DNA from: Desulfurococcales archaeon
GTDB taxonomy: Archaea > Thermoproteota > Thermoprotei_A > Sulfolobales > NBVN01
Direction of reading: 5' to 3'
Length of the DNA: 64,000 bases
NCBI GenBank assembly: GCA_027002995.1
Contig: JALWZB010000052.1
Location: 196-64,195, forward strand
Positions 4,733 to 41,319 of the stretch are shown in pieces (the stretch's first letter is position 1; every line of letters begins with the position of its first letter). Under the pieces are notes generated by a model, which was given only the letters and a program-made list of their open reading frames with translations, searched no databases and had not been told where the DNA came from. The translations under genes and the position numbers were made by a program.

Positions 4733-4870
4733 CCTTCTCGCTCACTCTACGGTATGTGTGTTTGCAGAGTGTTTAAAACTGGCTGGGGGGTAAGGAATAA
4801 GAATTTAAGACTAGTCTAACTTACCTTAGACGGGGGATACGAAACGGGTGCTACTAAGCAAGAATGCGAC

Positions 4871-6976
4871 ATTATCGTAGCGTTAGTCGGAAACCCGAAC
4901 GTCGGCAAATCCACACTATTTAACGTACTTACCGGGGAGACAGCACATGTAGGCAACTGGCCCGGCGTGACGGTCGAGCTGAAGCTGGGTATGCGCAAGT
5001 ACGAGGGCAGGAGGATATGCTTCGTTGACCTCCCTGGAACTTATGGAATCAGCGGCACTAGCCTCGAGGAGGTCGTCGCCCGGGAATTCATTGTTTCCAG
5101 CGAACCAGACGTCGTTATGGTGCTCGTCGACTCCACAGCCCCTGAAAGGACGCTCTACCTGGCGATCCAGGTGTTGGAGTTAACGCCGAACGTGATACTG
5201 GTTTTCACGAAGACTGATGAGGCACACCCGAGGGGAATTCACATACATTACGATAAGTTGGAGGAGTACCTAAGCGTCCCGGTAATCCCCGTCTCCGCGC
5301 TTAAGGGTGAGGGCATTAGGGACCTTCTCGAGGCACTCCTCAACTATAAGTCCAGGATTAAGCGGTCGGAACCCCTCACAATCGATTACGGCCCGCTGGA
5401 ACACTTCATACGTGAAATAGCGTCACTAATTGAGGAGGAGGGAGCCCTTCGCCAGTATCCCTCGAGATGGGTTGCTATTAGGTTGTTAGAGGGCGACATG
5501 CGTATTGAGGATCTGCTGAAGCAGGAAGGGAAGAAAGCCCTACTTAAGCGTGTGTGGAGCATCATCGACTCAGCGAGGAGGGTCCTCGGCGGCGACCTCA
5601 CGGAGCTCGCGATAAGGCAGCGTTTTGCGTTCGTTGATTCCCTGATAAGGAGGGTCGTGGTTAGGACGAAGGTTGAGGGAGGAAGTAGCCTTGAGAAGGT
5701 ACTACGTAGGCCGTTGGCTGGCCTCCTATTCAGTACGGCACTAACGCTGGGTGTCTTCCTGCTCATATTCTCGATAAACACAGGCTTCCCGCTGAACATC
5801 CTGCTTGAGTTGGCTGGGCAGGAGGGCTTAGCAGAGGCGGTGAGTACGTACAGCTTAAGCGGGATAGTCAGCATGGGATTCAACGAGCTCTCATCGCTGG
5901 CAGAGTCTGGGTTAAGTGCTGTGAACGCGCCCCACTGGTTCGTGTCCTTAGTGGCGAACGGCATCATACCGGGTGTTGGGTCTGTGCTCAGCTTCTTCCC
6001 CCTCATACTCATGGTGTTTCTGTTCCTGGCGATGCTTGAGGATAGCGGACTAATGCCTAGGATGGCCGTGGCGTTCCACTCCACCTTATCTAAGTTTGGT
6101 CTTTCCGGGAGGGCTGTTTACCCGTTAGTCATAAGCGTGGGCTGTAACGTGCCGGGCGTCATGACTAGCCGAACATCCCTCGACGATGTTGAGAGGCATG
6201 AGCTAATCTTCTCAGTTCCCTTTATCCCCTGCCAGGCTAGGTTAGTGGTTGGCTTAGCTTTCGCTATGGCTCTCTTCAAGAGCGCGGTCATGCAAGCAGT
6301 TGCCGTTGTATTCATCTATGCGCTAGGCACCGCGGCCGCCTTGCTGACAGCCATTATCATCCGTAGGGCTATCTACGGTATTCGCGAATCGCCTGAACTC
6401 ATAATGGAGTTACCACCCATACATAAGCCTAAGGCTAAGGTGGTGTGGTGGCTCACGTGGGACAACACTAAACACTTCCTCCGTAAGGCCGGGTTGATAA
6501 TATTCTCGCTAAGCATCGTTGTGTGGGCACTCCTCTACACGGGGCCTGAAGGGTACTTGCCTGACGTGTACGGAGAGAACTTCTTTCAGCACAGCTTCGC
6601 GGCAATCATAGGGAATGCTGTGGCCCCTGCCCTCACGCCTTTCGGGCTGAACTACACGCAGGCATGGAAAGTTGGGTTCGCGTTAGTGAATGGTTTCGTT
6701 GCGAAGGAAGTCGTGCTTGACAGCTTGTCCGTCCTGCATGGTGGCGCTAACCCGATAGTAGCCATTAGGGCGTTAGGGCTCAATGTTGCTCAAGGCCTCG
6801 GGATACTGGCGTTCATAACGCTTTATCTGCCCTGCTTAGCTACGCTCGCCGTCATGTATCAGGAGAGCAAGAGTTTAAGGAAGACCCTAATCTCCTTGAT
6901 GTACATGATGGGGTTAGCATACATTATCGCATTACTTGTTTACTACATTACAACCGCCCTACTCACCCTATTGTGA
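4871..6976 (+). CDS. feoB: ferrous iron transporter FeoB; 5' end unresolved
   Basis: P-loop VALVGNPNVGKSTLFN encoded at 4877-4924, then DLPGTYG and TKTD G-motifs and a polytopic membrane domain. The track start GTG 4967 lies downstream of the P-loop, and there is no ATG/GTG/TTG in frame between TAA 4817 and 4967. Confidence 0.85.
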   Translation: MIVALVGNPNVGKSTLFNVLTGETAHVGNWPGVTVELKLGMRKYEGRRICFVDLPGTYGISGTSLEEVVAREFIVSSEPDVVMVLVDSTAPERTLYLAIQVLELTPNVILVFTKTDEAHPRGIHIHYDKLEEYLSVPVIPVSALKGEGIRDLLEALLNYKSRIKRSEPLTIDYGPLEHFIREIASLIEEEGALRQYPSRWVAIRLLEGDMRIEDLLKQEGKKALLKRVWSIIDSARRVLGGDLTELAIRQRFAFVDSLIRRVVVRTKVEGGSSLEKVLRRPLAGLLFSTALTLGVFLLIFSINTGFPLNILLELAGQEGLAEAVSTYSLSGIVSMGFNELSSLAESGLSAVNAPHWFVSLVANGIIPGVGSVLSFFPLILMVFLFLAMLEDSGLMPRMAVAFHSTLSKFGLSGRAVYPLVISVGCNVPGVMTSRTSLDDVERHELIFSVPFIPCQARLVVGLAFAMALFKSAVMQAVAVVFIYALGTAAALLTAIIIRRAIYGIRESPELIMELPPIHKPKAKVVWWLTWDNTKHFLRKAGLIIFSLSIVVWALLYTGPEGYLPDVYGENFFQHSFAAIIGNAVAPALTPFGLNYTQAWKVGFALVNGFVAKEVVLDSLSVLHGGANPIVAIRALGLNVAQGLGILAFITLYLPCLATLAVMYQESKSLRKTLISLMYMMGLAYIIALLVYYITTALLTLL

Positions 6977-7023
6977 GTTCTGAGTTACGCTGGAAGCATG
7001 GAATTTTGTATCATAGCAAATCA

Positions 7024-7031
7024 CTTAAAAG
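7024..7031 (+). promoter_or_regulatory. TATA-box-like element upstream of the aRF1-family gene
   Basis: CTTAAAAG; a start about 26 nt downstream would fall at 7053-7058, next to GTG 7058. Confidence 0.4.
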
Positions 7032-7061
7032 GGCGGCTAGTGAGACTATGAGATAGGGTGA

Positions 7062-8168
7062 TCGGCATTTAGTGATAAGTTCAGGATATCGAAGAGCGAG
7101 CTGAAAAGGCTCCTGAGGGAGCTGAAGAAGTGGAGTGCCCATGCAACCACGCTCCTGAGCCTCTACATACCTCCGGGTAGGCCGATTGCTGACGTAGTTA
7201 ACGTTCTGCGTCAAGAGCTGTCCATAACCGAGAACATAAAGCTGAAAGCAACTAGGAACCGAGTTCAGACAGCGTTGAAGGCAGCCATAGATAGGCTTGT
7301 TAAGATACCGAAGGTCCCTCCGAATGGCTTAGTAATATTTGCGGGAGAGCATGATGAAACTGGTGAGACCATAGCCCTAGTGTTTGAGCCTCCAGAGCCC
7401 ATTAAGGCGTTCTTCTATAGGACCGACAAGTTCTTCCACACGGAGTTCCTTGAGGATATGGTTGCGGAGAACGACGTGTACGGCCTTATAGTAATTGAGA
7501 GAGATGAAGCAACAATAGGTCTGCTTAAAGGCAATGCCATAAGGGTTCTGGACGAGATCGAGGGCTACATACCGGGTAAGCATAGCCGAGGTGGGTGGTC
7601 TCAGAGGAGGTACGAGAGGATCATAGAGGAACTAACTAGGGACTTCTTCAAGAGCGTTGGGGAGAAAGCTACTAACCACTTCCTACCGCTCCTCCAAGAT
7701 GGTAAGCTCAAGGGAGTAATCATTGGAGGTCCCGGCTACACTAAGCTAGACTTCGTTAAGGGCGACTTCCTAGATTACAGACTTAAGCGCTTGGTGCTCC
7801 CCAAGACCATAGATGTGAGTGACCAAGGAGAGCCCGGGCTCAAGGAGCTGGTTATGAGGGCTGAAGACATGATAAAGCAACACATCTACATAAGAACCCA
7901 GAAGGCCCTTGAGGAATTTAACTACCACCTAGCCAAGGACGATGGCCTAGCAATCTACGGTGAGAAGGAAGTTATCGACGCCTTAAACCTCGGCGCTGTT
8001 AAACACATTATAATAACGGAGGATCACCCCAAGTTCGAGGAGATAGTTAAGCTTGCCGAGAAGAAAGGTGCTGAGGTCTACGTGCTCACTGATGAAGTAC
8101 CAGACTATATGTGGATTAAGAAGACGTTCAACGGCTTAGTAGGTGTTCTCAGGTACCAGATCTACTAG
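7062..8168 (+). CDS. prf1: aRF1-family protein (class I release factor homolog) with atypical motifs; 5' end unresolved
   Basis: Frame is open from 7062 (TGA at 7059-7061). Residues upstream of the track start TTG 7275 encode the conserved aRF1 N-domain (LLSLYIPPGRPIADVVNVLRQELSITENIKLKATRN). The middle domain has GKHSRGGWSQRRYERIIEE. No in-frame canonical start before 7275. Confidence 0.8.
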   Translation, partial: SAFSDKFRISKSELKRLLRELKKWSAHATTLLSLYIPPGRPIADVVNVLRQELSITENIKLKATRNRVQTALKAAIDRLVKIPKVPPNGLVIFAGEHDETGETIALVFEPPEPIKAFFYRTDKFFHTEFLEDMVAENDVYGLIVIERDEATIGLLKGNAIRVLDEIEGYIPGKHSRGGWSQRRYERIIEELTRDFFKSVGEKATNHFLPLLQDGKLKGVIIGGPGYTKLDFVKGDFLDYRLKRLVLPKTIDVSDQGEPGLKELVMRAEDMIKQHIYIRTQKALEEFNYHLAKDDGLAIYGEKEVIDALNLGAVKHIIITEDHPKFEEIVKLAEKKGAEVYVLTDEVPDYMWIKKTFNGLVGVLRYQIY

Positions 8169-8291
8169 GAAGAACCCTAACCCACTATTCCTCAGGTTGC
8201 TGGGTGTCCTAAATTCCCTATGTCGTTTTACTGCTGCTTAGTCAATCCACTTATAATGACTGTCTCGTAACGTTATGACAGGTGTGGAGGT

Positions 8292-11228
8292 ATGGTCAGC
8301 ACTAAGGACGCAGGTAAGAAGGGAGCTAAGCTAAGGTCACCAATAGTTACCGTGCTAGGACACGTAGATCATGGCAAGTGTCTTCACCCAGACGAGAGGG
8401 TGGTGTTAGCCAATGGTAGGTTAGTCAAGGTAAAGACGCTCTTTGAGGGTGTCGCAGGAGGCAACATCATTAATGCTGGGGATGGATATGAGTTCATTAA
8501 GAGAAAAATTGGGGTGACGACCCTCACCCCTCAAGCACGCGTGAGGCGCGGCAGGACGAGTAAAGTGTGGCGCGTTTGGTATGAAGGGTACCTATACGAG
8601 ATTACCCTAAGTGATGGAAGTAGGGTAAGGGTGACGCCAGAGCATCCGTTCCTGACTCTTGATGGATGGATTAGAGCGGGGGACATTACCGTGGATGACG
8701 CGGTCGCCGTAGCTACGAGCGTACCCAACCCGGAGAACTCGTGGAGCATTCTGGCCCGCATCGCACGCCTAGCGGGGATTAAGGAAGGTTTAGGACGTGT
8801 CGGTAGGGCCGCCTGGCGCCGTGCATTCGAACTCGTGGGCCTCAGGTGCGCTGGCCGGGTAATCGACTCGTCACTTAACGACACCATTGAAGCGGTAGCT
8901 GTCGCTAACGCTACGTCGGAGGTGCTCGCGGCCGCACTAGGGCTTAAGGTGAGTACCTCGGCTAAGCTCGCGGGGTGCGTACTCGCAGCCAGTAAGGCAT
9001 GGGGCGATAGTGTATTCGTGCCTGCCTCAGTCCTTCAAGCCCCGAATACCTTGCTTGGAGACTTCATCCGCGGCTTAGTGAAGGGGTCCGGAATCATAGA
9101 CCCTGAGACGCCTGAGATCCTGATCCCCGTCCCAAGCCTTGAGGCTGGTGTGGAGGTTAAGTATGTCCTAGCCCGCTTAGGCGTGTTCTCCTCCATCACC
9201 GAGTTAAGGACGCACCACTACGTTAGGGTTGCTGGCGTGAAGGACGTTGACTTACTCGCTAGGAAGGCAGGATTGAGAATCGATGTTATTGGTGAGGGTA
9301 GTATTGATGATGGCAGGGTCCTCAAGCTAGGTGACGTGCAGTTCATCAGCGTCAAGTCCATCCGCAGGATCCCGTATAAGGGATACCTTTACGACCTCTC
9401 CGTACCGCCAACGCAGTGTTTCATCGCCAATAACGTTGTAGTGCATAACACCACGCTCCTCGATAAGATACGTGGTACGGCAGTCGTTAAGAAAGAGCCT
9501 GGCGAAATGACCCAGCACGTCGGCGCATCAATGATTCCTGCCTCAGTAATAGAGAAGATCGTTGAGCCGCTCAAGTCAATGTTCCCAATAAAGCTTAAGA
9601 TCCCGGGCCTGCTCTTCATAGACACGCCTGGCCACGAGGCCTTCTCTAACTTAAGGAAGCGCGGAGGAAGCATAGCTGACTTCGCAATACTAGTCATCGA
9701 TGTTATGGAGGGCGTTGAGAAGCAAACCATCGAGAGTATCCAGATACTCATGAGTAGGAAGGTCCCCTTCGTTGTCGCCGCTAACAAGATAGATAGGATC
9801 TACGGGTGGAGGCCTCAGCCCGATCAACCCTTCCTCTTCTCAATGAGGCAGCAGAGCAAGAGGGCTTTAGAAGAGTTGGAACGGAGAATATATACCATCG
9901 CTGGACAGCTCTCTAGCTTAGGTATCCCTGCCGAGAGGTTCGACAGGATCAGGGACTTCACGAAGGCAATAGCGATCGTGCCAGTCTCAGCCAAGACAGG
10001 GGAGGGTATCCCCGAGCTACTTGCCGTCTTAGCCGGCTTGACGCAGAAGTACTTAACGAAGAGGATACTATTCACGGAGGGTCCGGCGAAGGGCGTTGTG
10101 CTGGAGGTTAAGGAAATACCTGGTCTGGGGACGTGCTTAGACGTCGTGATATATGACGGGATCCTGAGGCGTGGCGACATAATAGTCGTGGGCGGAATGA
10201 AGGAACCCATAGTTACTAGGGTTAGGGCCCTCCTCATGCCAAGGCCCCTCGAAGAGATGAGAGCCGCTAGTGAGTCGGCATTCAAGAACGTTGACGAGGT
10301 CGTGGCGGCGGCGGGCGTTAGGGTCAGCGCCCCCGGCCTTGAGGAAGCAATAGCTGGCGCGCCGCTGTACGCAGTGGAGAGCGAGGAGAAGGTTAAGGAG
10401 TATGTTGAGAAGGTGAGAGAGGAAGTAACGCAGGTGAGGTTCTCCAAGGACATTAACGGCGTCATAGTTAAGGCTGATACCCTAGGCACACTTGAGGCTG
10501 TCGTGGGCATGCTTGAGTCCAAAGGCATACCGGTTAGGCTAGCAGACGTAGGTCCCTTAACTAAGAGGGAGGTAATTGAGGCGTCAATAGTTGCGAAGCA
10601 GAACAGGTACTACGGTGTGGCGCTCCTGTTCAATGTCAAGCCACTACCAGACGCCGAGGAACTCGCTAGGAAGGAGGGTGTGCGCATATTCCAAGACTCG
10701 ATAATCTACAGGTTAATCGAGGCGTACGAGAACTGGGTGGCAAAGGAGAAGCAGAGGGAAGAATACTACGAACTCCTCAAAACGGTGTTCCCGGCTAAGT
10801 TCCAGGTGCTTCCCGGGTTCGTGTTCAGACGCAGTGACCCGGCAGTCGTCGGCATACGGGTGCTGGCGGGCGTGATCAGGCCTGGCTACCCGATAATGCG
10901 TGACGACGGAAGACCCCTTGGTAAGATATATCAAATCCAGAGCAAGGGTAAGAACTTAGATGAGGCGAAGGCTGGGAAAGAGGTCGCTATTTCAATTGAG
11001 GGCAACGTCTTAGTGGGTCGCCACTTCGATGAAGGCGACGTCCTCTACACCGACCCCAGCGAGAAGGATTTGGAGACTGTGTTAACTAGGTTCAGGAAGT
11101 ACGTGACTAAGGACATGCTACCCTTGATCGAGGAAATCATTAGGATCAAGAGGAAACGAGATAAGAGGTTCGGGTTACCTATACTCCTCAAGCTGAGGAG
11201 TTTGAAGAAGGAGTTTGAAGGTAAGTGA
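8292..11228 (+). CDS. infB: translation initiation factor aIF5B (IF2 homolog), intein-containing
   Basis: 978-aa ORF; GTPase P-loop GHVDHGK interrupted after Lys29; DTPGHEAF, NKID; extein is 621 aa after intein removal. Confidence 0.95.
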   Translation: MVSTKDAGKKGAKLRSPIVTVLGHVDHGKCLHPDERVVLANGRLVKVKTLFEGVAGGNIINAGDGYEFIKRKIGVTTLTPQARVRRGRTSKVWRVWYEGYLYEITLSDGSRVRVTPEHPFLTLDGWIRAGDITVDDAVAVATSVPNPENSWSILARIARLAGIKEGLGRVGRAAWRRAFELVGLRCAGRVIDSSLNDTIEAVAVANATSEVLAAALGLKVSTSAKLAGCVLAASKAWGDSVFVPASVLQAPNTLLGDFIRGLVKGSGIIDPETPEILIPVPSLEAGVEVKYVLARLGVFSSITELRTHHYVRVAGVKDVDLLARKAGLRIDVIGEGSIDDGRVLKLGDVQFISVKSIRRIPYKGYLYDLSVPPTQCFIANNVVVHNTTLLDKIRGTAVVKKEPGEMTQHVGASMIPASVIEKIVEPLKSMFPIKLKIPGLLFIDTPGHEAFSNLRKRGGSIADFAILVIDVMEGVEKQTIESIQILMSRKVPFVVAANKIDRIYGWRPQPDQPFLFSMRQQSKRALEELERRIYTIAGQLSSLGIPAERFDRIRDFTKAIAIVPVSAKTGEGIPELLAVLAGLTQKYLTKRILFTEGPAKGVVLEVKEIPGLGTCLDVVIYDGILRRGDIIVVGGMKEPIVTRVRALLMPRPLEEMRAASESAFKNVDEVVAAAGVRVSAPGLEEAIAGAPLYAVESEEKVKEYVEKVREEVTQVRFSKDINGVIVKADTLGTLEAVVGMLESKGIPVRLADVGPLTKREVIEASIVAKQNRYYGVALLFNVKPLPDAEELARKEGVRIFQDSIIYRLIEAYENWVAKEKQREEYYELLKTVFPAKFQVLPGFVFRRSDPAVVGIRVLAGVIRPGYPIMRDDGRPLGKIYQIQSKGKNLDEAKAGKEVAISIEGNVLVGRHFDEGDVLYTDPSEKDLETVLTRFRKYVTKDMLPLIEEIIRIKRKRDKRFGLPILLKLRSLKKEFEGK
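8379..9449 (+). mobile_element. intein (357 aa) in the aIF5B P-loop
   Basis: Starts with Cys (CLHPDERVVLANG) right after GHVDHGK, has block B VTPEHPF, ends VVVHN followed by Thr (TTLLDKIRG); central LLGDFIRGLVKGSG resembles a degenerate LAGLIDADG motif. Confidence 0.9.
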
Positions 11229-11254
11229 TTTTCCTGTTATACATAAACACGTCC

Positions 11255-11674
11255 TTAAAACTCACCGCAATCGGGGGAGAAGACCACGCTTATTTCATAT
11301 TCAGCTCTTTCAGGGCTGTCGGCTGCGTGCACTATGTTTTCTTGAATCGATAAGGCGTAATCGCCCCTAATGGTTCCCGGAGGTGCTTTGCGCCCATCGG
11401 TCGGGCCTATTAGGTTCCTGACGACGCTTATTGCCTCGTCACCCTCAACGATCATCGCTACTATGGGTCCGGAGCTCATGAAGGTTACTAAGTCCTCGAA
11501 GAATGGCTTGCCCTTATGGATGTCATAGAGCCTCTCCATGCACGCGCGTGTTGCGCGTATCATCCTTAGCTTAACTATTTTCAGGCCCTTGGCTTCCAGC
11601 CTCCTTATGACTTCGCCGATTAAGCCGCGCCTAACGCCGTCAGGCTTGACGATAACCAGCTCGCGCTGGTTCAA
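11255..11674 (-). CDS. ndk: nucleoside diphosphate kinase
   Basis: 139-aa ORF; [27 protein letters not shown] active-site region. Confidence 0.95.
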
Positions 11675-11679
11675 TCAGT

Positions 11680-11871
11680 TCACCTTCTTGACTTCTTGCC
11701 AAGGTAATACGCTGTCCATGGTAGCCTCTTCGGGTCCCTGCCTAACTTGAAGTTCTTGAAGCACTTGCTTGAGCAGAACCAGAGTATCGTGCCGTCATTC
11801 TTAACGTACATTATCCCCGTGCCAGGCTCGACAGGCCCCCCGCAGAATGAGCATCGCTTCGGCCTAGGCAT
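11680..11871 (-). CDS. rpl24e: 50S ribosomal protein L24e
   Basis: 63-aa ORF; zinc-ribbon CSFCG...[22 protein letters not shown]. Confidence 0.95.
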
Positions 11872-11921
11872 CCCTTACACCCCCTCAGACTAGTGAATCA
11901 ACTTAAAAGTTTGAGGCTACC

Positions 11922-12188
11922 TTACCTCCTAGTTGAGAGCTTCCTCGCTTCCCTCTCCGTCTCTCTTAGGATCACTATGTCGCCGATCCTCACCGGGCCC
12001 TTAATGTTCCTCGCTATGATCCTTCCCTTGTCCCTTCCTTCAAGAACCCTTACTCTGACCTGGGTTATCTCGCCGGTAACACCTGTCCTACCAACAATCT
12101 GTATTACCTCGGCTGGGAACCCGAACTCCTCGATGACGTTTACCTGCGGTTGACTGACGTCTATCTTCTTCTTACCTTCCTCTGCCAC
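11922..12188 (-). CDS. rps28e: 30S ribosomal protein S28e
   Basis: [57 protein letters not shown]. Confidence 0.9.
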
Positions 12189-12346
12189 GACCCAAGCACC
12201 GTAGTTTCTAGGTTCTGCGGTTTTAAAAGAATTCCTTAGTGCGTGGCATGCAGTTGTTAAGGATTGATGTAACGCTTCTAACTTTTGTGTGAGTAGTTAT
12301 TAAAAATGAGTGGTTCCCGTAGTTGTTTGCTTGCGTTGCCTTAGGT

Positions 12347-12751
12347 TTAGGCTTTAGTCTTGAGTTCTTCGTAGGCTTTGATTAGCTCATCGACTAGGTC
12401 CTTGGCTTCACCGGGGTCGACGATGGCTACTGAAGATGCTTGGACCTCGATGCCCGCCATCTCTCCGAGCTTCTTCTTGCTTGGGACGTATAGGTAGGGC
12501 ACCTTCTTCTCCTCGCAGAGGAGTGGTAGGTGCATGACTACCTCAGGTGGGTCGACGTCTTCGGCTATAAGTACTAGCTTCGCTAGTCCCCTCTCGACAG
12601 CCTTGGTTGTTTCGTTGACGCCCTTCCTAACCTTACCACCGGTTTCCCTAGCCTTCTTGACTGCTTCGTACGCTTTCTCGGCTATTTCAGGTGGCACCTC
12701 AAACCTTACGTATGGGGGCTTGCTCATTCTCATCCACCTCGGTCGTCGCAA
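12347..12751 (-). CDS. rpl7ae: 50S ribosomal protein L7Ae (K-turn binding)
   Basis: [43 protein letters not shown]; the true start may be an internal Met ([12 protein letters not shown]). Confidence 0.95.
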
Positions 12752-12790
12752 TCACTACTCTCTAGGGGCGCTTAAAAGCGTAGCGCCCTG

Positions 12791-15027: not shown

Positions 15028-15030
15028 CGC

Positions 15031-16050: not shown

Positions 16051-16084
16051 GCGTTCAACACCAAGAGTTAGGTGGGGTACTGAA

Positions 16085-18746: not shown

Positions 18747-18787
18747 CTACTTACTTCTTCGGCGGGGCGCTTATTTTGGGTACCGTG

Positions 18788-20265: not shown

Positions 20266-20269
20266 GGCT

Positions 20270-28783: not shown

Positions 28784-28910
28784 TTGCTTAGTTTTTAACC
28801 TGACCTCTTAACGTGATGATGATATCGTTATTTTCCTTAAATAACTCAGATACTTAAGCATATCATATCCCTGAGTCCCTTACACGAGCGCTTGGCCCGG
28901 TGACTGAGGT

Positions 28911-31153: not shown

Positions 31154-31239
31154 TGAGAGCCTATAAGGAAGCGTCATCCTTTAATAATCCCACCCTTAAT
31201 ATTTCTCTTTGAATAAGTTCTGAGGAGGAGGGACAGGGA

Positions 31240-31566: not shown

Positions 31567-31803
31567 GCCCTTAATGTTCCCCTACCACTTTTTCGGTGTC
31601 TCCATAACCTTTAGGTTTACTGAGGAGGGGCATTGATTAGGTGATTACCTAGTAATGTTACCTTAACTAACGAGCATGAAACTAGCGTAGAAGCTCACAA
31701 GAGGTCTTTTGGAAGAACTCGAAGTGAGTGCACCACGGTGTCCATAAGGGAGCAAGTTAAACTATAATTCCACTCCACTAGAATGAATGGAGGCTGAATT
31801 CGC

Positions 31804-32418: not shown

Positions 32419-32424
32419 TGAGTA

Positions 32425-33366: not shown

Positions 33367-34722
33367 TAGCCTGCCCTCAACGCTGTAGCTAACATCGTCG
33401 TGGAGCACATTAACGGCGTCAACGATCAGTGGCTCACGCCCGGAGAACTCGGTTATGCTGGACACCTTAAGCCCCCTGTAAGCTGAGTGCCTAACACATA
33501 CGATTACCAGTAATGAGTCCTTGAGGGCCTCACGTAGGTTGTTGGTTAAGCCCACACCTAACTCACTAAAGTAGTCATCCTTAGCCACGAGTGGGTCGTG
33601 CACGATAATGTCCCTATACCCCTTACTGAGGAGGGCGGAAACCACGCCATGTGTCGGTGATAAGCGTGGGTCGTCGATGTTCCCTCTGAAGGCATCGCCA
33701 AGGACAGCTACCCGCACATCCCTAGGCTTCAGTCCATGCTTAACCACAAGCCTGTGGGCTAAGTCAGCGACGATCGAGGGCATGGACTCGTTAATGATTC
33801 TAGCAAGCCTCGTTAACTCCATCGGGACCCCAACCTTCATTGCCTCACCCATCAGGAAGTATGGATACGAGGGTATGCACGGCCCACCCACGCCGGGGCC
33901 TGGCAGGAGTAGGTGGCAGTAAGGCTGAGTGTTAGCTGCCTCCATAACCTCGTAGTAGTTAACGCCTAGTGCTTGGGCCGCTAAGGCAAGCTCATTAGAA
34001 AGCGCTATCACTACGTCCCTATACACCCCCTCAGCAAGCTTCTCGAACTCCGCCGCGATCGTCGAGGAAAGCCTCACGACGCCCTTACGAGCGACTAGCG
34101 AGTAGAGGCGCGCTACCGCGTCAAGGCTGTGGGGACCAATTCCAGCCACGATCTTGGGGTAGTTCTCCTCAATGTCCCTTAAAGCTCTGCCAACGTAAAC
34201 GCGCTCCGGACTGTAGGCGAGGAGAAAGTCCTCCTCAGCTCTTAACCCACTTATGGATTCAAGGACCGGTCTAGCGACACGCTCAGTAGTGCCTGGCGGT
34301 GCGCTGGACTCGATCACCACTAGGTCTCCGGCGCTTAGCCCCTCACCCACGGATGTTACTGCGTCAATGAAAGCATCGAACCTCACAGTCCTGTGGCTCC
34401 AGTCGAAGTGTATAGGGACCGTAACTACCTTAACCCTTGATTGACGGGACGCCTCGACAGCATCACTCGTTAATTTCAAGGTACCTACCTTAAGACCTTC
34501 AGCAATAGCCTCCCTGACCTCTGCTTCAAAGAACTTCACACGGCCCTCTCGAATGTCATTTAGCTTACTCCTATCAATATCGACGCCGATTACCCGCAGA
34601 CCACGTCTGAGGAAAGCCGCGGTTAATGCCCTGCCGACGTACCCCATGCCGTAAATAGCTATCCACGCCTCCCCACTAATGACTGCGTCCACCGGGTCAC
34701 GGTTGCTTACGCTCAATATCAA
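33328..34722 (-). CDS. UDP-sugar 6-dehydrogenase family (UDP-glucose / UDP-N-acetylhexosamine dehydrogenase)
   Basis: 464-aa ORF; IAIYGMGYVGRALT, GPGVGGPCIP catalytic Cys region. Confidence 0.88.
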   Translation of the reverse strand: MILSVSNRDPVDAVISGEAWIAIYGMGYVGRALTAAFLRRGLRVIGVDIDRSKLNDIREGRVKFFEAEVREAIAEGLKVGTLKLTSDAVEASRQSRVKVVTVPIHFDWSHRTVRFDAFIDAVTSVGEGLSAGDLVVIESSAPPGTTERVARPVLESISGLRAEEDFLLAYSPERVYVGRALRDIEENYPKIVAGIGPHSLDAVARLYSLVARKGVVRLSSTIAAEFEKLAEGVYRDVVIALSNELALAAQALGVNYYEVMEAANTQPYCHLLLPGPGVGGPCIPSYPYFLMGEAMKVGVPMELTRLARIINESMPSIVADLAHRLVVKHGLKPRDVRVAVLGDAFRGNIDDPRLSPTHGVVSALLSKGYRDIIVHDPLVAKDDYFSELGVGLTNNLREALKDSLLVIVCVRHSAYRGLKVSSITEFSGREPLIVDAVNVLHDDVSYSVEGRLLVLGVGDLEKRP

Positions 34723-34815
34723 CTCCTCAAGAGGTGGTTGCTCAACCCAAATTAACGTTGGCGGGGAACCTCATCCTTTTAAGTAAAGTGTCTAAGTAGG
34801 TTAGGGTCGGTAGCC

Positions 34816-35361
34816 ATGAAGTGCATAGAGAAAGGCTTAGTCGCGTGGTTCACGGGGCTCCCCGCAAGCGGTAAGACGACCGTGGCTTCCCTAGTTAAGG
34901 AGGAGTTAAGTAAGGCGGGGTATAGGGTGGAGCTCCTAGACGGGGACTGGGTCAGGAAAACAATAAACGTTGGGGCCGGCTTCACGAAGGAGGAGAGGGA
35001 ACGCCACCTCCTCAGGGTCGCATGGATAGCGAGGCTACTAGCGAGGAACGGCGTGATAGTTCTATGTAGCTTCGTGTCGCCCTACAGGGACGTGAGGAAG
35101 AAAATCAAGGACATTATAGCTGAGGAGGTCCCCTTCCTGGAAATCTGGGTTAAGTGTAGTGTCGAGGAATGCATAAGAAGGGATCCGAAGGGGCTCTACA
35201 AGAAGGCCTTGAAAGGGGAGATACAGCACTTCACAGGCATAAGCGACCCATACGAACCGCCGGAGAACCCTGACTTAGTAATAGACACTGAGCACGATCC
35301 GCCAGAGAAGAATAAGGAGGCTGTGCTCAACCTACTTAGGAAGCACGGGATCGAGATTTAA
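34816..35361 (+). CDS. cysC: adenylylsulfate (APS) kinase
   Basis: 181-aa ORF; WFTGLPASGKTTVA P-loop, LDGDWVRK, SFVSPYRDVR. Confidence 0.93.
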   Translation: MKCIEKGLVAWFTGLPASGKTTVASLVKEELSKAGYRVELLDGDWVRKTINVGAGFTKEERERHLLRVAWIARLLARNGVIVLCSFVSPYRDVRKKIKDIIAEEVPFLEIWVKCSVEECIRRDPKGLYKKALKGEIQHFTGISDPYEPPENPDLVIDTEHDPPEKNKEAVLNLLRKHGIEI

Positions 35362-35432
35362 GTCCGGGGCAATGTTTTCTTGACCGCTTCTTCAGGCATC
35401 CCGTACATGAGCCTTCTCCGCGACATTAAGAG

Positions 35433-35448
35433 TAATTATTTTTAATTA
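35433..35448 (+). promoter_or_regulatory. AT-rich palindromic 16-mer upstream of TSUP-1 (copy 1)
   Basis: TAATTATTTTTAATTA, followed by two ATAATTAT copies (35452-35459, 35462-35469); 14 of 16 identical to 36627-36642. Confidence 0.35.
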
Positions 35449-36255
35449 GTGATAATTATAGATAATTATGGGGAGAGAATGCTGTTAGAGCCAGTATCGC
35501 TAGCGTGGACCGCGACCCTAATCACCTTAGCACTAGTGACACAGTACGTCAGTGGCGTCATAGGGATGGGGTACGGGACAATCTTAACGCCAGTACTCAT
35601 ACTTCTAGGGGTTGACCCGCTCAACGCTATTTCTTCGGTAGTTGCTTCCCAGCTAGCGGGGAACTCTGTGCTCTCCCTTATGCATCATAGGTTTGGGAAC
35701 GCCGACCTAAGGCCGGGAGGCGAGGAATCGAGGCGAGCCATAATACTGGGGGTCTCAGGGATAGTGGGTCCGCTTGTTGCTGTGATCCTTATGCTACACA
35801 TGCCGGTGAACTTGCTTAAGGCCTACGTAGCCATCTTAATGCTATCCATGAGCGCTCTGGTCGTGTTGAGCAGGAGGGTCAGGGTTAAGTACTCGACTAA
35901 GAAGCTTTTCCTCATAGCCGCTATTGCCAGTTTCAACAAGGGATTAACTGGTGGTGGGTACGGCCCCGTAGTGACTGCTGGGCAACTAATACTGGGGGTT
36001 GATCCGAAGTCGGCAGTTGCTGTCACGTCTATGGCAGAATTCATAACTGAGGTAACCGCAGTTACCCTGTATGGGCTTGCCGGGCTACTTAATCCAGCAC
36101 TCATAGCGCCGATGACCGCCGGAACAGTGCTGAGCGCGCCGTTGGTAGCCAAGACCGTTAAGGTCGCGCCAAACACGACTTTAAGGAAGGTCATAGCGGC
36201 AGGCATGACTTTCCTGGCCTTAGCCGTGCTCGTAAAGGCACTCACCGTAGTGTGA
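35449..36255 (+). CDS. TSUP (TauE/SafE, DUF81) family anion permease
   Basis: Polytopic ORF; two-repeat TSUP topology and Gly-rich TM1 (VSGVIGMGYGTILTPVL); the likely real start is ATG 35479 (MLLEPV). Confidence 0.78.
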   Translation: MIIIDNYGERMLLEPVSLAWTATLITLALVTQYVSGVIGMGYGTILTPVLILLGVDPLNAISSVVASQLAGNSVLSLMHHRFGNADLRPGGEESRRAIILGVSGIVGPLVAVILMLHMPVNLLKAYVAILMLSMSALVVLSRRVRVKYSTKKLFLIAAIASFNKGLTGGGYGPVVTAGQLILGVDPKSAVAVTSMAEFITEVTAVTLYGLAGLLNPALIAPMTAGTVLSAPLVAKTVKVAPNTTLRKVIAAGMTFLALAVLVKALTVV

Positions 36256-36331
36256 GGAGTGCGTCTCCCAACATTAAGCTAGTACTGCGTGTTCATGCAA
36301 ACACTCTTATTGGGAGCAATTCCTCATTAGA

Positions 36332-36562
36332 TTGAGGGCTAATGAGATGGGTGAGGAAACCGTAAGTATTGAGATATCGAAGGAGCTCTATGAGAAGGTG
36401 AAGAAGTATATTGAGGAGAACGGGGGCTTCTCCTCAGTAAGGGAGTTCGTTGAGTTCGTCATTAACGAGGTACTCTCAACTGAGGAGGAAGCTGGTACTG
36501 GTTACACTAAGGAAGAGGAGGAGAAGGTTAAGGAGAGGCTCAGATCCTTAGGGTACCTGTGA
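36332..36562 (+). CDS. small ribbon-helix-helix (CopG-like) protein, paralog 1
   Basis: VSIEISKELYEKVKKYIEENGGFSSVREFVEFVINEVL, acidic linker, tail KERLRSLGYL; likely start ATG 36347. Confidence 0.68.
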   Translation: MRANEMGEETVSIEISKELYEKVKKYIEENGGFSSVREFVEFVINEVLSTEEEAGTGYTKEEEEKVKERLRSLGYL

Positions 36563-36626
36563 GGGCACGTAGTTAAAGTAATACGCTAGCTTTTTAGGAA
36601 TAACTTTCTGCTCAATTAATTACGGG

Positions 36627-36642
36627 TAATTATATTTAATTG
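36627..36642 (+). promoter_or_regulatory. AT-rich 16-mer upstream of RHH-2/sat (copy 2)
   Basis: TAATTATATTTAATTG, about 29 nt upstream of TTG 36671. Confidence 0.35.
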
Positions 36643-36670
36643 CTACTGCAACTTATTCCCGGGTGCCCAC

Positions 36671-36916
36671 TTGCCGGAGGGAGAGAGGAAAAGCGGTAGA
36701 AGCCGCTACACCACGGTCTCAATACCCGTGACGTTGTATAATAGGATAAAGAAACTCATAGAGGGTACGGGCTTCGCTAATGTTTCCCAGTTCGTTACCT
36801 ATGTACTCAGGGAAGTTGTTGTTGAGTATGAGAGGGCTCGTGAGGCTGAGGAGCCGTTCACCGAAGAGGAAAAGGAGAAGATTATTGAGAAGCTCCGTAG
36901 GTTAGGCTACATTTAA
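36671..36916 (+). CDS. small ribbon-helix-helix (CopG-like) protein, paralog 2
   Basis: TVSIPVTLYNRIKKLIEGTGFANVSQFVTYVLREVV, acidic linker, tail IEKLRRLGYI; 14 nt upstream of sat. Confidence 0.68.
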   Translation: MPEGERKSGRSRYTTVSIPVTLYNRIKKLIEGTGFANVSQFVTYVLREVVVEYERAREAEEPFTEEEKEKIIEKLRRLGYI

Positions 36917-36930
36917 GGAGGTGGTGCGGG

Positions 36931-38079
36931 ATGGTGTCTAAACCGCATGGGGGTAGGTTAGTTAACAGAGTTGCTAAGGGGAGAAGGAGAGAAGCCCTCC
37001 TCGAGGAGGCGAAGGAGCTTCACAGTATTGAGGTAACAAAGAATACGGCGTCAGATATCCACAACATAGCGTATGGTGCGTACTCACCCCTCCAGGGATT
37101 CCTGCTTAGGGAGGACTACGAACACGTACTCTACGATATGAGGTTGTCGGACGACACGCCCTGGACCATACCCATAGTACTCGACGTACGCAAGGATGAG
37201 ATCCAAGGAGTCAAGGAAGGTGATGACGTGGCCTTAACGCACGAGGGTCAGATCCTAGCCGTCATGAAGGTCGAGGAGATTTACGAGTGGGATAAGAAGG
37301 AGTTCGCTAGGCACGTGTTTAAGACTGAGGACCCCAACCACCCCGGTGTTGCCCGCACGTACGCCCGTAAGGAACTACTGATTGGGGGCCCGATAGATCT
37401 GCTTAACCCGCTGAAACACCCCTTCGACAGATACGCGCTCACACCGCTTGAGACGAGGGTGCTGTTCAAAGAGAAGGGGTGGAGAACCATAGTGGCGTTC
37501 CAGACACGTAACGTGCCGCACTTAGGGCATGAGTACGTCCAGAAGGCTGCCTTAACATTCGTTGACGGCCTCCTAATCCACCCATTAGTGGGGTGGAAGA
37601 AGCCCGGCGACTTCAAGGACGAGGTCATAGTGGCTGCTTACGAGGCACTAATCAAGCACTACTACCCGAAGGACTCGGTCGTGTTCTCCGTGCTCTGGAT
37701 GCAGATGAGGTACGCAGGACCTAGGGAAGCAATACACCACGCGATAGTTAGGAAGAACTTTGGCTGCACACACTTCATCGTGGGCAGGGACCACGCCGGC
37801 GTAGGTAATTACTACGGACCGTACGAGGCGTGGGATCTCTTCAACGAGTTCCCCGACCTAGGCATAACGCCGCTATTCATACGTGAGTCATTCTACTGCA
37901 AGAAGTGTGGAGGCATGGTAAACGCTAAGATCTGCCCGCACAGCGACGAATTTAGGGTGAGGATAAGCGGGACCAAACTCAGGAAAATGATAAGGAATAA
38001 GGAGAAACCACCGGAATACATGATGAGGCCGGAGGTAGCGGAGGTTGTCCTCAGCTTCGACAACCCGTTCGTCACTTAG
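36931..38079 (+). CDS. sat: sulfate adenylyltransferase (ATP sulfurylase)
   Basis: 382-aa ORF; QTRNVPHLGHEY, VGRDHAGVGNYYG, C-terminal Cys cluster CKKCG...CPH. Confidence 0.95.
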   Translation: MVSKPHGGRLVNRVAKGRRREALLEEAKELHSIEVTKNTASDIHNIAYGAYSPLQGFLLREDYEHVLYDMRLSDDTPWTIPIVLDVRKDEIQGVKEGDDVALTHEGQILAVMKVEEIYEWDKKEFARHVFKTEDPNHPGVARTYARKELLIGGPIDLLNPLKHPFDRYALTPLETRVLFKEKGWRTIVAFQTRNVPHLGHEYVQKAALTFVDGLLIHPLVGWKKPGDFKDEVIVAAYEALIKHYYPKDSVVFSVLWMQMRYAGPREAIHHAIVRKNFGCTHFIVGRDHAGVGNYYGPYEAWDLFNEFPDLGITPLFIRESFYCKKCGGMVNAKICPHSDEFRVRISGTKLRKMIRNKEKPPEYMMRPEVAEVVLSFDNPFVT

Positions 38080-39139
38080 GGAAATCCCCGCATGCTCTGA
38101 GTTTATTGAGGGGGTCCTTAGGGAGGGTAGGAAGGTTTACGTGCTACATCACTGGGATGCTGACGGCGTGGCGTCCGCAGCAATACTCCTGCGGGTGCTG
38201 GGACCCCGCATAGTGGGTATGAGCACGCCTAAGATAGGTGTGTATGGGGCAAGCGCCCTGAACCTCAATGAGATTAAGAAGAGCGGAGCTGACGCCCTGG
38301 TGGTGTTGGATTATGGGGCACGCCCCGACGAGGTGTTAGCGCGAGTGCCTCAGGGGCTTCAGACATTCATCGTTGATCACCACGCTGTTGAGTTAAGCTA
38401 TAATGCTCGGGAACGCTGCTGTAACCCCGTAGCACTAGGCATGGGCGAGGCCGAGTACCCCTCAACCACGTGGGTGCTCTACGAACTCCTCAACACACCC
38501 TCTGACATCGTTGATTTAGTGGCGCTAGGTATTGTTGGAGACCTTGGGCCAGCACTCGCTACGAGCGAGCACGTGACGTTTGTTGATAACGTTGCTGCTG
38601 AGCTCAACATGACCCTCAACGACTTCGTTAGGGCGGCTGAACTCATAGACTCTTGCTACAGGATTATGAACAGCGAGTGTATCGAGCACGCGGTTCAAGT
38701 GCTTGCAGAGGAGGGTGTTAAAGGTGTTTTACATGACGAAGTATTAATTAATGCTCATGAGTCAGCGTCACGTTACGTTGATAGTGCCTACGACCGTCTC
38801 CAAAGCCTTGAAGAACCCTGTCCCGGTGTGAAGCTATGGAAGTTAAGCCTAGACTCCCTAGTGACTTCATACGTTGGAAGGTCGCTAGCACGCGCGTACC
38901 CGGACAACGTGATCTTACTAGCGCACAATATACCGTCGCTCAACGTGACGTACGTGTATGTCAGAAGCTATTCCGTACCGCTGAGGAGGTTCCTTGAGAA
39001 GCTGAGAGAGGAGGGACTGAGCGTGGGTGGTAAGGACATGGTGTTCGTGGTGACGTGCTCCGAGGGAGAGGACTGTGATGAGGTGCTAAGTAAAATAACC
39101 ACACATTTATGCCGTGACCTAAGTAGGGAGGGGCAGTAG
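38045..39139 (+). CDS. DHH-family phosphoesterase (candidate pAp phosphatase / nanoRNase-like)
   Basis: 364-aa ORF; LHHWDADGVAS and FIVDHH motifs; TTG 38045 has GGAGGT 8 nt upstream; 35-nt overlap with the sat 3' end. Confidence 0.72.
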   Translation: MSSASTTRSSLREIPACSEFIEGVLREGRKVYVLHHWDADGVASAAILLRVLGPRIVGMSTPKIGVYGASALNLNEIKKSGADALVVLDYGARPDEVLARVPQGLQTFIVDHHAVELSYNARERCCNPVALGMGEAEYPSTTWVLYELLNTPSDIVDLVALGIVGDLGPALATSEHVTFVDNVAAELNMTLNDFVRAAELIDSCYRIMNSECIEHAVQVLAEEGVKGVLHDEVLINAHESASRYVDSAYDRLQSLEEPCPGVKLWKLSLDSLVTSYVGRSLARAYPDNVILLAHNIPSLNVTYVYVRSYSVPLRRFLEKLREEGLSVGGKDMVFVVTCSEGEDCDEVLSKITTHLCRDLSREGQ

Positions 39140-39141
39140 AT

Positions 39142-40491
39142 TTGAGGAAAGTGTTCGTGCTTGGGCTGGACTCGGCACCGCCGAAAACCCTATATGAGAG
39201 GTACGGTGTCGACATTCCTGCGTTGGGCTCCCTCATAGATGACTCCAGAAGGTGGTTAATGCGCACCTGCCACCCGCCAATAACGATACCGGCGTGGCTA
39301 GTGATGTTCACCGGTAAGACTCCTGGAGAGCTAGGCATTTACGGGTTCAGGCATAGGAAGCCTGGGGACGTTGGACACACCTACATAATAAACTCGAACT
39401 TCATTAAGCACCAGACATTATGGGATACCGTCGGCCGCGCTGGCGGCCGCGTAGGGATTTTCGGGGTGCCCCCAACATACCCGCCAAGGCCCGTGAGGGG
39501 CTTCATGATAACGGACTTCATGACTCCTGGCCCGGAAAACCAGTACGCGTTCCCGCCGTGGCTTAAGCGTGAGCTAGAGTCGAGGTTCGGACCACTCATA
39601 TTCGACGTGAAGTTCAGGAGGCATGATAAGGAGAGGGTTAGGGACGAACTCTTCCAGATGACTAGGCAGCACCTGAAGATAATCGAGTACCTAGTTAAGC
39701 GCAAAGCGTGGGACCTCTTCATATACGTTGAGATAGGTATTGATAGAATACACCACGCCTTCTGGAAGTACTTCGACGTCTCCCACCCTAGGTACGAGGA
39801 GAACGAGGAGCTATCACGTGTGATCCCCGACTACTACAAGTTAATAGACGAGGGATTCGAGAGGATCAGGAAAGCATTGCCGAAGGACACGATAATAGTT
39901 GTTGCGTCCGACCACGGCGTTAAGTCAATGGCCGGCGCGTTCGCCGTGAACGAATGGCTCATTAAGGAGGGGTACCTGAAGCTGAAGGAGAAGCCGAAGA
40001 AGCCCGGCACTGACCTAACCAGAGAGATGATTGACTGGGACTCAACAATAGCTTGGGGCTGGGGAGGCTACTACTCACGCATCTTCATCAACCTAAAGGG
40101 CAGAGAACCGAAAGGAATTGTCGGTAGGGAAGAATTCGATGACATCATAACGCAACTCTCCAACGACTTACGGAGAGTGAAAGGCGATAATGGCGCGTTA
40201 TGGCGCAACATAGTGCTTAGACCAGAGGAAATATACCCTGAAGTGCGGGGTGACCCGCCTGACCTGATGGCGTACTTCGACGATCTAAGCTGGCGCGCTG
40301 CTGGAACCGTTGGGTGGGACACTCCGTTCCTTCCGGAGAACGATAGGGGGCCTGACGACGCGGTTCATGACTGGCATGGCGTGTTCACGGTCTACGACCC
40401 TGAAGGGACGGTGTCTCGCGGGATGGGTGGTGAGATGCCTATAGAGCGCATAGCTGATTACTTGAGGGAACTGATACTCTCTAAATCCTAA
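39142..40491 (+). CDS. alkaline-phosphatase-superfamily hydrolase (type I phosphodiesterase / nucleotide pyrophosphatase family)
   Basis: 449-aa ORF; VFVLGLDSAPP, PPITIPAW (candidate Thr nucleophile), VVASDHG; starts 2 nt after the DHH gene stop. Confidence 0.78.
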   Translation: MRKVFVLGLDSAPPKTLYERYGVDIPALGSLIDDSRRWLMRTCHPPITIPAWLVMFTGKTPGELGIYGFRHRKPGDVGHTYIINSNFIKHQTLWDTVGRAGGRVGIFGVPPTYPPRPVRGFMITDFMTPGPENQYAFPPWLKRELESRFGPLIFDVKFRRHDKERVRDELFQMTRQHLKIIEYLVKRKAWDLFIYVEIGIDRIHHAFWKYFDVSHPRYEENEELSRVIPDYYKLIDEGFERIRKALPKDTIIVVASDHGVKSMAGAFAVNEWLIKEGYLKLKEKPKKPGTDLTREMIDWDSTIAWGWGGYYSRIFINLKGREPKGIVGREEFDDIITQLSNDLRRVKGDNGALWRNIVLRPEEIYPEVRGDPPDLMAYFDDLSWRAAGTVGWDTPFLPENDRGPDDAVHDWHGVFTVYDPEGTVSRGMGGEMPIERIADYLRELILSKS

Positions 40492-40545
40492 AGGCGATTT
40501 CAATGCAGGTTTAACTCAACCACTAAGTAAGCGGGTGCATGCGCC

Positions 40546-41319
40546 ATACATTGGTTAACGTACGTTGCCTACGCCGGCATCGCCGTTGCTATATCCTTGC
40601 TCTCCTCCATGGCCGGAATTGGGGGCGGGGTATTCATGGTCCCCCTATTCTACTTCTTAGGGCTAGGAATGAGCAACGCCGTGGGAACCAGCAAGTTCGT
40701 AATCACCTTCATAAGCTTCGTGAGTATGGTGAGCTACTTAAGAAGTGGTAAGGTGAACTACCGCGTAGGGCTAGTGGCTCTCGCAACAATGATACCATCA
40801 TCATACGTTGGCGCCTGTCTTTCAGGGCTCCTGAACTCATCGATACTGAAGTTCATCGTCGGTTCATTCATAATGATCTACAGCCTCAGACTCCTCTCCA
40901 CGTACATCAGGAAGAAAGTGAGAAAGGAAGGGGAGGGAAACGACTATGGCACCAGCCCATCACTAAGCACGTTACTTAGGTGCGCCTTCGTAGGCCTCAT
41001 AGCAGGCTTCATAGCAGGAATAACAGGGACGGCGGGCGGCTCCGTGAACATGCCGCTCTACACCACGGTTTTAGGTATGCCCATACACAACGCCGTGGCT
41101 ACGTCGTTCTTCACGATATTCCCCACAGCAGTGATAGCTACAACCCAACACATACTCCATGGCGAGGTAATTTACAATGTCGCTATACCTTTCGTTACTG
41201 GGTCGCTTGTAGGTGCGTCCATAGGGTCCCGGCTGGCGGTTAAGATGAAGCCTCAAACACTCAGGTTAATTATCGGTTGCGTGCTTCTCGTAACGTCCGT
41301 TAAGATGTTGTTACCGTGA
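40546..41319 (+). CDS. TSUP (TauE/SafE) family anion permease, second copy; 5' end unresolved
   Basis: MAGIGGGVFMVPLFYFLG signature. TM1 (WLTYVAYAGIAVAISLLSS) is encoded upstream of the first canonical in-frame start TTG 40597. The frame is open from 40531; ATA 40546 has GGGTG 8 nt upstream. Confidence 0.72.
   Translation: MHWLTYVAYAGIAVAISLLSSMAGIGGGVFMVPLFYFLGLGMSNAVGTSKFVITFISFVSMVSYLRSGKVNYRVGLVALATMIPSSYVGACLSGLLNSSILKFIVGSFIMIYSLRLLSTYIRKKVRKEGEGNDYGTSPSLSTLLRCAFVGLIAGFIAGITGTAGGSVNMPLYTTVLGMPIHNAVATSFFTIFPTAVIATTQHILHGEVIYNVAIPFVTGSLVGASIGSRLAVKMKPQTLRLIIGCVLLVTSVKMLLP

Follow-up and report, generated by a model that had tools for sequence, protein, structure and literature searches.

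The gene for the class-I release factor aRF1 in an uncultured member of the Desulfurococcales appears to be expressed through a programmed +1 frameshift at the stop codon of a very short leading frame. We analysed a 64,000-nucleotide (nt) stretch, the window, of a metagenome contig from this organism (JALWZB010000052.1; ENA ERZ23491050, scaffold_79). Three of its genes, feoB, aRF1 and a TSUP/TauE permease gene (TSUP), all on the forward strand, lack an in-frame ATG, GTG or TTG ahead of conserved N-terminal sequence. Canonical starts first appear in frame at GTG 4967 (feoB), TTG 7275 (aRF1) and TTG 40597 (TSUP), and the profile matches begin upstream of all of them, at 4874 for FeoB_N, 7092 for TIGR03676 (aRF1) and 40573 for TauE, which confirms this part of an earlier reading of the sequence (the initial annotation). 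Judging from the sequence comparisons, we consider it quite probable that the three genes have no common mechanism, and that aRF1 would be made by a programmed +1 shift, feoB would start at ACG 4844 and TSUP would start at AUA 40546.

At the aRF1 locus, a TATA-like box (CTTAAAAG, positions 7024–7031) is the presumptive promoter element. It is followed by a G-rich, Shine-Dalgarno-like element (GGGTGATC, 7056–7063), whose GGTG is invariant in 21 unique close relatives and which holds the start codon of a minute reading frame, ORF0. ORF0 (7058–7072) reads GTG ATC GGC ATT TAG, encoding Met-Ile-Gly-Ile and a stop, in a frame one base upstream of that of aRF1. The putative shift site, ATT TAG T (7067–7073), would place AUU in the P site and UAG in the A site, and AGU would be read as Ser after the shift. 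Three consecutive stop codons occupy the 0 frame here (TAG TGA TAA, 7070–7078), and therefore readthrough of the TAG would be unable to rescue that frame. The aRF1 body (7071–8168; 365 codons plus stop) lies in the +1 frame, in which a TGA at 7059–7061 is followed by no canonical start before TTG 7275, already past the NIK motif. The predicted frameshift product consists of MIGI followed by SDKFRISKSELK... and has 369 residues. It scores 431.5 bits against TIGR03676 (cutoff, 234.7) and matches the eRF1_1, eRF1_2 and eRF1_3 domains (PF03463, PF03464 and PF03465).

This arrangement is conserved. We collected 23 aRF1 loci from genome assemblies, with 54–99% protein identity (individual loci are designated L with a number), and in the 20 closest the string GGTG N6 A TTTAG[C/T] is invariant amid unconserved flanks. 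In the close relatives, the base before TTT is always A and the two bases before it vary, the reverse of what is expected for a codon in the aRF1 frame. The Phe codon at the site is always TTT, despite a genome preference for TTC (25.2 versus 4.5 per 1000 codons), and the following Ser codon is always AGY. Together, these choices preserve the alternative-frame TAG.

A metagenome scan with an aRF1 alignment gave 80 more loci and named organisms were added by look-up, for a total of 109 loci with 95 unique 5′ regions. The cassette, composed of an ATG (44) or GTG (43), one or two codons, NTT, a stop codon and the aRF1 body in the +1 frame, is present in 87 of the 95. The shift codon is NTT in all 87 (ATT 54, TTT 20, CTT 12 and GTT 1). 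The stop is TAG in 75 cassettes, TGA in 10 and TAA in two, and the base after it is C or T in 82 (C 69, T 13). The +1-frame residue after Phe follows the identity of the stop, being Ser or Arg with TAG, Asp or Glu with TGA, and Asn with TAA. Because this residue changes with the stop, the conserved element is NUU-U-stop and not the peptide. As aRF1 recognizes all three stop codons, their use in the cassette fits an omnipotent release factor. The ATG or GTG of ORF0 is always in frame with the NTT-stop, with no stop between them. The aRF1 frame is closed by an upstream stop without an intervening canonical start in 71 of the 87 cassettes, and in 46 that stop is merely two or three codons before the site.

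Among named organisms represented by complete or draft genomes, Saccharolobus islandicus (complete genome CP001731.1) has ATG AGT CTT TGA C, ending in the seven bases of the E. coli prfB shift site. In Desulfurococcus amylolyticus, the sequence is ATG AGC CTT TAG C; two aRF1-frame stops lie just upstream, and the ORF0 ATG is located about 31 nt from a TATA box, as expected of a leaderless start. Zestosphaera tikiterensis has GTG GGT CAT ATT TAG C. The predicted junction peptides are MIGISDK in the window organism, MSLDEYALNK in S. islandicus and MSLSYSEDQIESMR in D. amylolyticus. In a neighbour-joining tree, the cassette is found in almost all sampled lineages, and its shift codons and stops are clade-specific. 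When 1.68 Mb of fetched sequence was scanned for the cassette on both strands, all 90 occurrences were at aRF1.

Two sequence variants deserve mention. In L095 (about 1470–1500) the site reads ATG GGT CTT TTA GC, with four T where the close relative L102 has three (ATG AGT CTT TAG C), and a −1/+2 shift would be needed; the extra T may be a homopolymer error in this older metagenome or a real variant. L036 (about 3860–3890) and L067 contain, slightly ahead of the shift site by a few codons, a second GTTTAGT (TAG TTT TAG TTT AGT TGG TGG ...), which resembles a short motif duplication.

From these sequence features we infer both the frameshift event and its control by aRF1. On an mRNA that is probably leaderless or nearly so, the ribosome would initiate at GUG 7058 and read Met-Ile-Gly-Ile. 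By analogy with crenarchaeal promoter geometry, the 5′ end of the mRNA is predicted to lie a few nt before GTG 7058. The distance from the TATA box to the GGTG is nearly constant in the relatives (20–26 nt), and this geometry is compatible with a leaderless or near-leaderless ORF0 start, and in the GTG class also with initiation on AUU. After two or three translocations, an NUU-decoding tRNA would occupy the P site with a stop codon in the A site; in the window, these would be tRNA-Ile on AUU and UAG 7070. When aRF1 is plentiful, the tetrapeptide would be released and no aRF1 synthesized. When aRF1 is scarce, the A site would remain empty and the shift would be favoured, leading to aRF1 synthesis. 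The P-site tRNA may re-pair one base forward, from AUU to UUU, keeping two of its three pairs (the second and third positions), like the CUU to UUU slip in prfB. Alternatively, the out-of-frame AGU may be read by Ser-tRNA. In either case, translation would go on in the +1 frame to give full-length aRF1.

The G-rich element may assist this step. A G-rich block lies at −11 to −7 from the shift codon in both classes of ORF0, as GRGGG-ATG in the three-codon class and as GGGTG in the four-codon class. It overlaps or abuts the ORF0 start codon and leaves 6 nt to the shift codon, versus 3 nt in prfB. This distance of 6 nt is one below the modal spacing between GGTG and the start in window genes (about 7 nt), and therefore pairing with 16S rRNA could favour the forward position and push the ribosome ahead. 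The element would thus be a candidate frameshift stimulator resembling that of prfB.

Several observations weigh against this scheme. RNAalifold found no conserved pairs around or downstream of the shift site in 17 sequences. The motif is missing from L115 and L118, which start in the ordinary way. In L038, L051–L053 and L070, an in-frame start stands just before Phe-Ser and TTTAGC is still kept, and L023–L025 have both options. Because these lineages have in-frame starts, the shift site is not obligatory everywhere and its conservation could be partly at the protein level. In the four-codon class, the usual GGTG spacing (about 7 nt) would put the initiating ribosome at the ATT or TTT, not at GTG 7058. 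Finally, many relatives, though not the window, have an in-frame GTG, TTG or ATG 5–10 codons past the site, which the databases use and which would allow a slightly shorter aRF1 without any frameshift.

These downstream codons, adopted by annotators in several relatives, raise the possibility that aRF1 begins past the site (at ATA 7086 in the window, and at GTG, TTG or ATG in relatives) and that ORF0 is a tiny regulatory upstream open reading frame overlapping the leader. The Pfam eRF1_1 profile, which starts about 10 residues past the shift site, is in keeping with such a shorter protein. The substitution pattern argues for translation from the site itself. Between related pairs, the 33 nt past the site contain 197, 136 and 507 substitutions at +1-frame codon positions 1, 2 and 3, as compared to 266, 41 and 1002 in the gene body and 31, 18 and 13 upstream of ORF0. 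The third-position excess directly after the shift site resembles that of the gene body and is unlike the region upstream of ORF0. Codons past the site vary synonymously in the aRF1 frame (GAG/GAA, TAT/TAC, AGG/AGA and GTN, and TCC/TCT/TCG for Ser). Codon 7086 is ATA, ATT, ATC, GTG, GTT, GTC or GTA in the relatives; this variation, which is that of an internal Ile or Val, and the coding-type conservation upstream of 7086 refute ATA 7086 as the aRF1 start. In addition, tens of codons pass before any canonical start is reached in the window and in many relatives. The alignment with the solved Aeropyrum pernix aRF1 (3AGK) extends across the residues that precede the Saccharolobus start annotated in databases, and at the N-terminus the predicted frameshift products are as long as the normally started aRF1s of Pyrodictium and Hyperthermus. 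On this evidence, synthesis of aRF1 without a frameshift is unlikely.

If translation passes through the shift site, as we propose, the aRF1 N-termini in databases are probably wrong throughout the group. The RefSeq start of the S. islandicus aRF1 is a TTG ten codons downstream, and the annotated N-termini of the Sulfolobaceae are all truncated. In several assemblies, the NCBI annotation uses ATT, ATC or ATA as the start (L017, L019, L022 and L037). With Prodigal-type callers, the aRF1 N-termini are short by 10–70 residues.

The spacing of the GGTG suggests another form of the same +1 shift, in which GGUGAU would set the initiator tRNA on AUU 7067, the first A-site codon would be UAG (a start-stop), and weak initiator pairing would permit +1 reading. 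Genes in the window have their start 5–8 nt after GGTG, most commonly 7 nt, and at aRF1 the ATT lies at 6 nt and the TTT at 7 nt. The distance from the promoter to the GGTG is also like that of genes such as L24e and S28e. However, the three-codon class has CTT or TTT at this position, which would be unable to initiate, and a plain ATG 6 nt upstream, and because of this class the ATG or GTG is favoured as the ORF0 start. The invariable in-frame, stop-free connection between the ATG or GTG and the NTT-stop, together with the leaderless-like position of the D. amylolyticus ATG, also speaks against initiation on AUU 7067, which we regard as decidedly unlikely. We thus retain GUG 7058 as the probable ORF0 start.

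Recoding has a textbook example in release factors that regulate their own synthesis by frameshifting at a stop codon of their gene, a mechanism considered bacterial, apart from a single unusual viral example, and lacking in the archaeal and eukaryotic factors. The aRF1 cassette shares with bacterial prfB (RF2; CUU UGA C) a short ORF0 ending in a stop that the encoded factor reads, a body in the +1 frame, an NUU P-site codon able to re-pair on UUU, mostly C after the stop, and a G-rich element just upstream. In the Sulfolobaceae, even the heptamer CTT TGA C is identical. On the other hand, aRF1 is not a homologue of RF2, and its product matches only the aRF1/eRF1 families. The aRF1 ORF0 has 3–4 codons versus about 25 in E. 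coli, all three stops are used instead of UGA only, and the P-site codon varies (AUU, UUU, CUU or GUU). The G-rich element ends 6 nt and not 3 nt from the shift codon, and the aRF1 mRNA may be leaderless. By analogy, the cassette is prfB-like in its presumed function, its feedback being proposed from this likeness, and stands outside the prfB gene family. Eukaryotic antizyme (UCC UGA) and Euplotes genes (AAA UAA) likewise involve a +1 shift at a stop in competition with termination, but these use a polyamine sensor or operate genome-wide, with no link to a release-factor gene.

We know of no report of a frameshift in aRF1, and no description was found in the searchable full-text literature, a scope that excludes subscription-only work. 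The cassette therefore appears to be undescribed so far. Among eRF1/aRF1-family factors, the eRF1-like genes of Mimivirus (R726) and Megavirus (mg280) also need a frameshift at an internal stop, but they require two recoding events, a frameshift plus a readthrough, deep inside a viral gene (Jeudy et al. 2012, PMC3521657). The same study stated that autoregulatory recoding of release factors is absent from the archaeal and eukaryotic homologues. There is likewise no reference to aRF1 in a 2016 review of frameshifting, in the 2013 GeneTack survey or in a review of recoding in archaea from 2021.

The initial annotation had treated the missing starts as one 5′ anomaly common to feoB, aRF1 and TSUP, with a start codon one base out of frame in each (ATG 4864, GTG 7058 and ATG 40539) and with ATT 4871, ATA 7086 and ATA 40546 (the last with GGGTG 8 nt upstream) as possible initiation codons. 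Although all of these coordinates and sequences are exact, the anomaly is not shared: a conserved +1 site exists only in aRF1, and the ATGs of feoB and TSUP are by-products of coding. An early programmed +1 shift from the out-of-frame ATG or GTG at a short T run in all three genes, suggested by the presence of an NTG one base out of frame near each 5′ end, is strongly supported for aRF1, exactly at the proposed ATT T|AG, and unsupported for the other two. In feoB, the frame is translated upstream of ATG 4864, and [AG]TG at that position is forced by the Glu-Cys codons GA[AG] TG[CT]. In TSUP, the out-of-frame ATG 40539 arises where GC[AG] TGC encodes Ala-Cys (GCA TGC in the window), and its 0 frame is open for 70 codons with no stop or pause site. 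Since the relative L030 has a GTG in the other frame instead, TSUP has no conserved +1 configuration. Comparison with relatives thus revealed this configuration in aRF1 but in neither feoB nor TSUP. As the cassette scan was also empty outside aRF1, a +1 shift common to the three genes is hardly credible.

The initial annotation had also raised a systematic assembly artefact at T runs, and the 2–3 T at each proposed shift point could equally point to transcriptional slippage restoring the frame. A strain from a second sample, however, differs from the window at 453 of about 21,000 positions (about 2%), has no indel over 21 kb and shows the same frames. The aRF1 configuration recurs in more than 100 independent assemblies of differing technologies, including the complete genome CP001731.1. 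Sequencing or assembly error is therefore excluded as the cause of the missing starts. Slippage fares no better, as three consecutive T are too few for it, and it would leave the obligatory 0-frame stop of varying identity unexplained; together, artefact and slippage retain only a minimal probability. Whether three indels could fall by chance within 15 nt of the starts is a moot question, because no indels exist and two of the three out-of-frame starts are coding by-products.

Elsewhere in the window, the anomaly was not found: a Pfam scan of stop-to-stop translations of ten genes, those with the longest stretches before the first canonical start among about 58 others, detected no domain upstream of the first start. 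The window genes do show a recurrent promoter-leader layout, with an 8-nt TATA box, about 20–22 nt, GGTG or GGAGGTG, 5–8 nt and the start codon (for example at 11871, 12188, 8292, 22988 and 23559). With this layout, the Shine-Dalgarno element coincides with the predicted mRNA 5′ end or lies very close to it.

The feoB gene, identified by TIGR00437, is preceded by a TATA-like box (ATTTAAGA, 4803–4810) that fits this layout (TATA, about 21 nt, a G-rich element, 5–8 nt and a start). The relatives with 62–64% identity have an in-frame ATG or GTG 4–8 codons before the conserved Cys-Asp-[Ile/Val]-x-[Val/Ile]-Ala-Leu-x-Gly-Asn-Pro-Asn-Val-Gly-Lys. In the clade of the window (six sequences, down to 71% identity), no canonical start is present. 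ACG 4844 sits at the position of the ATG in the relatives, and a Shine-Dalgarno-like GGGGGAT (4832–4838) ends 5 nt before it, with GGGGA kept in L003, L005, L006 and L007. An in-frame ACG is found in all six sequences of the clade, 4–6 nt past GGGGA or GGGGGAT. L008 has the same geometry with an ATG (TGGGGAC, CTGGC, ATG). Most changes in codons 4847–4870 are at the third position of the feoB frame, and Cys-Asp (4865–4870) is invariant in 10 sequences with TGC/TGT and GAC/GAT variation; for these reasons, feoB translation begins upstream of both ATG 4864 and ATT 4871. GTG 4848, from which a −1/+2 shift could lead into the feoB frame, was considered as a start and rejected, as it is missing in L003. 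We conclude that feoB (4844–6976) most likely initiates at the near-cognate ACG 4844–4846.

For TSUP (40546–41319; PF01925 from 40573), the proposed initiation codon is ATA 40546–40548, 8 nt after a Shine-Dalgarno-like GGGTG (40533–40537). GGTG, 8 nt and ATA are found in five distinct sequences (the window, L026, L028, L030 and L032). All six distinct sequences have ATA or ATT at 40546, the ATT being in L027 after a G-rich GAGGGCG. The codon at 40531 is GCG in the window and L028, GTG in L026 and L027, and TAA in L030. In L030, this TAA lies five codons before the ATA and no canonical start is present, leaving the ATA as the sole near-cognate codon. Past the ATA, Ile-x-Trp-Leu-Thr is kept with synonymous changes. 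ACG 40558, which aligns with an ATG in L027, was weakened as a candidate start by an ACC in L030. Initiation at AUA 40546 is thus most likely on the sequence comparison. The suggested AUU/AUA initiation is accordingly supported for TSUP. It does not apply to feoB ATT 4871, which has the conserved Cys-Asp with synonymous changes upstream, or to aRF1 ATA 7086. A TSUP relative with 72% identity has a true frame break inside the first transmembrane segment in two independent assemblies (L032, about 560–700, and L033, about 330–470), its N-terminal part AIHWLTCVVYVGATLLIS being in a different frame from MVGVGGGVFMVPL.

In this small sample of six distinct sequences for each gene, the near-cognate codons of feoB and TSUP are conserved in frame at normal Shine-Dalgarno spacing, and the coding signature follows the codon but does not precede it. 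As a counterweight, ACG is, to our knowledge, no recognized prokaryotic start codon, and we know of no demonstration of ACG or AUA initiation in archaea. The bacterial infC gene (IF3), autoregulated through its AUU start, similarly combines a weak start codon with a normal Shine-Dalgarno context. The archaeal factors are different (aIF1 and aIF2), and the likeness concerns the start codon only, not regulation. Alternatively, feoB and TSUP could be decaying, or could start at the first canonical codons, GTG 4967 and TTG 40597; the several states of the start region among TSUP relatives and the frame break in L032 and L033 could be read in this way. However, the ratio of nonsynonymous to synonymous substitution rates is about 0.05 for feoB, which indicates a functional gene, and 0.05–0.14 for TSUP, in relatives likewise devoid of canonical starts. 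A start at GTG 4967 would remove the feoB P-loop, and the ACG and ATA/ATT are kept at a spacing appropriate to the Shine-Dalgarno element. Decay or a downstream canonical start is therefore quite unlikely, and near-cognate initiation remains the favoured reading for both genes.

The aRF1 of the window has a second peculiarity. At 7590–7598, GGT GGG TGG encodes Gly-Gly-Trp (GGW) where the catalytic motif is otherwise universally GGQ. GGW was found in 39 of the 120 best protein hits and in 36 unique loci, and is present in the window, L002–L022, L034 and L038–L062. These sequences form one clade nested among GGQ sequences, with GGQ sister groups, and occupy the same syntenic position adjoining aIF5B; the synteny with aIF5B, NDK, L24e, S28e and L7Ae also holds in the GGQ-type orthologues. 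A strict link between GGW and the cassette was rejected, as L036, L037, L063 and L065–L067 combine GGQ with the cassette, and L038 and L051–L053 combine GGW with an in-frame GTG. No mention of GGW in connection with release factors was found in the literature searched, again with subscription-only work outside its scope. The adjoining aIF5B (IF-2) gene of the window (8292–11228) contains an intein (Pfam Intein_splicing) and encodes 978 residues, versus 608 in L036 and L037.

Taken together, we hold it somewhat better than an even chance that a prfB-like, termination-sensitive +1 shift at codon 3–4 of aRF1 is ancestral to a large part of the Thermoprotei (the Sulfolobaceae, Desulfurococcaceae and relatives, including the model Saccharolobus) and has gone unrecognized, and that one clade within them carries GGW in its apparently sole class-I release factor. 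If GGW is indeed in the only release factor of these organisms, it calls into question the assumption that GGQ and its methylation are universal. The ACG start of feoB and the AUA start of TSUP would imply that genuine genes of this lineage are shortened by gene callers, and the aRF1 shift, if true, would correct the annotated N-terminus in hundreds of genomes. It would be the first widespread +1 programmed frameshift in archaea, and would serve, in the genetically tractable Saccharolobus and Sulfolobus, as a natural reporter of how efficiently the eukaryote-like ribosomes of archaea terminate. Bacteria, giant viruses and archaea would each have reached the same feedback logic on non-homologous release factors, a strong case of convergent evolution.

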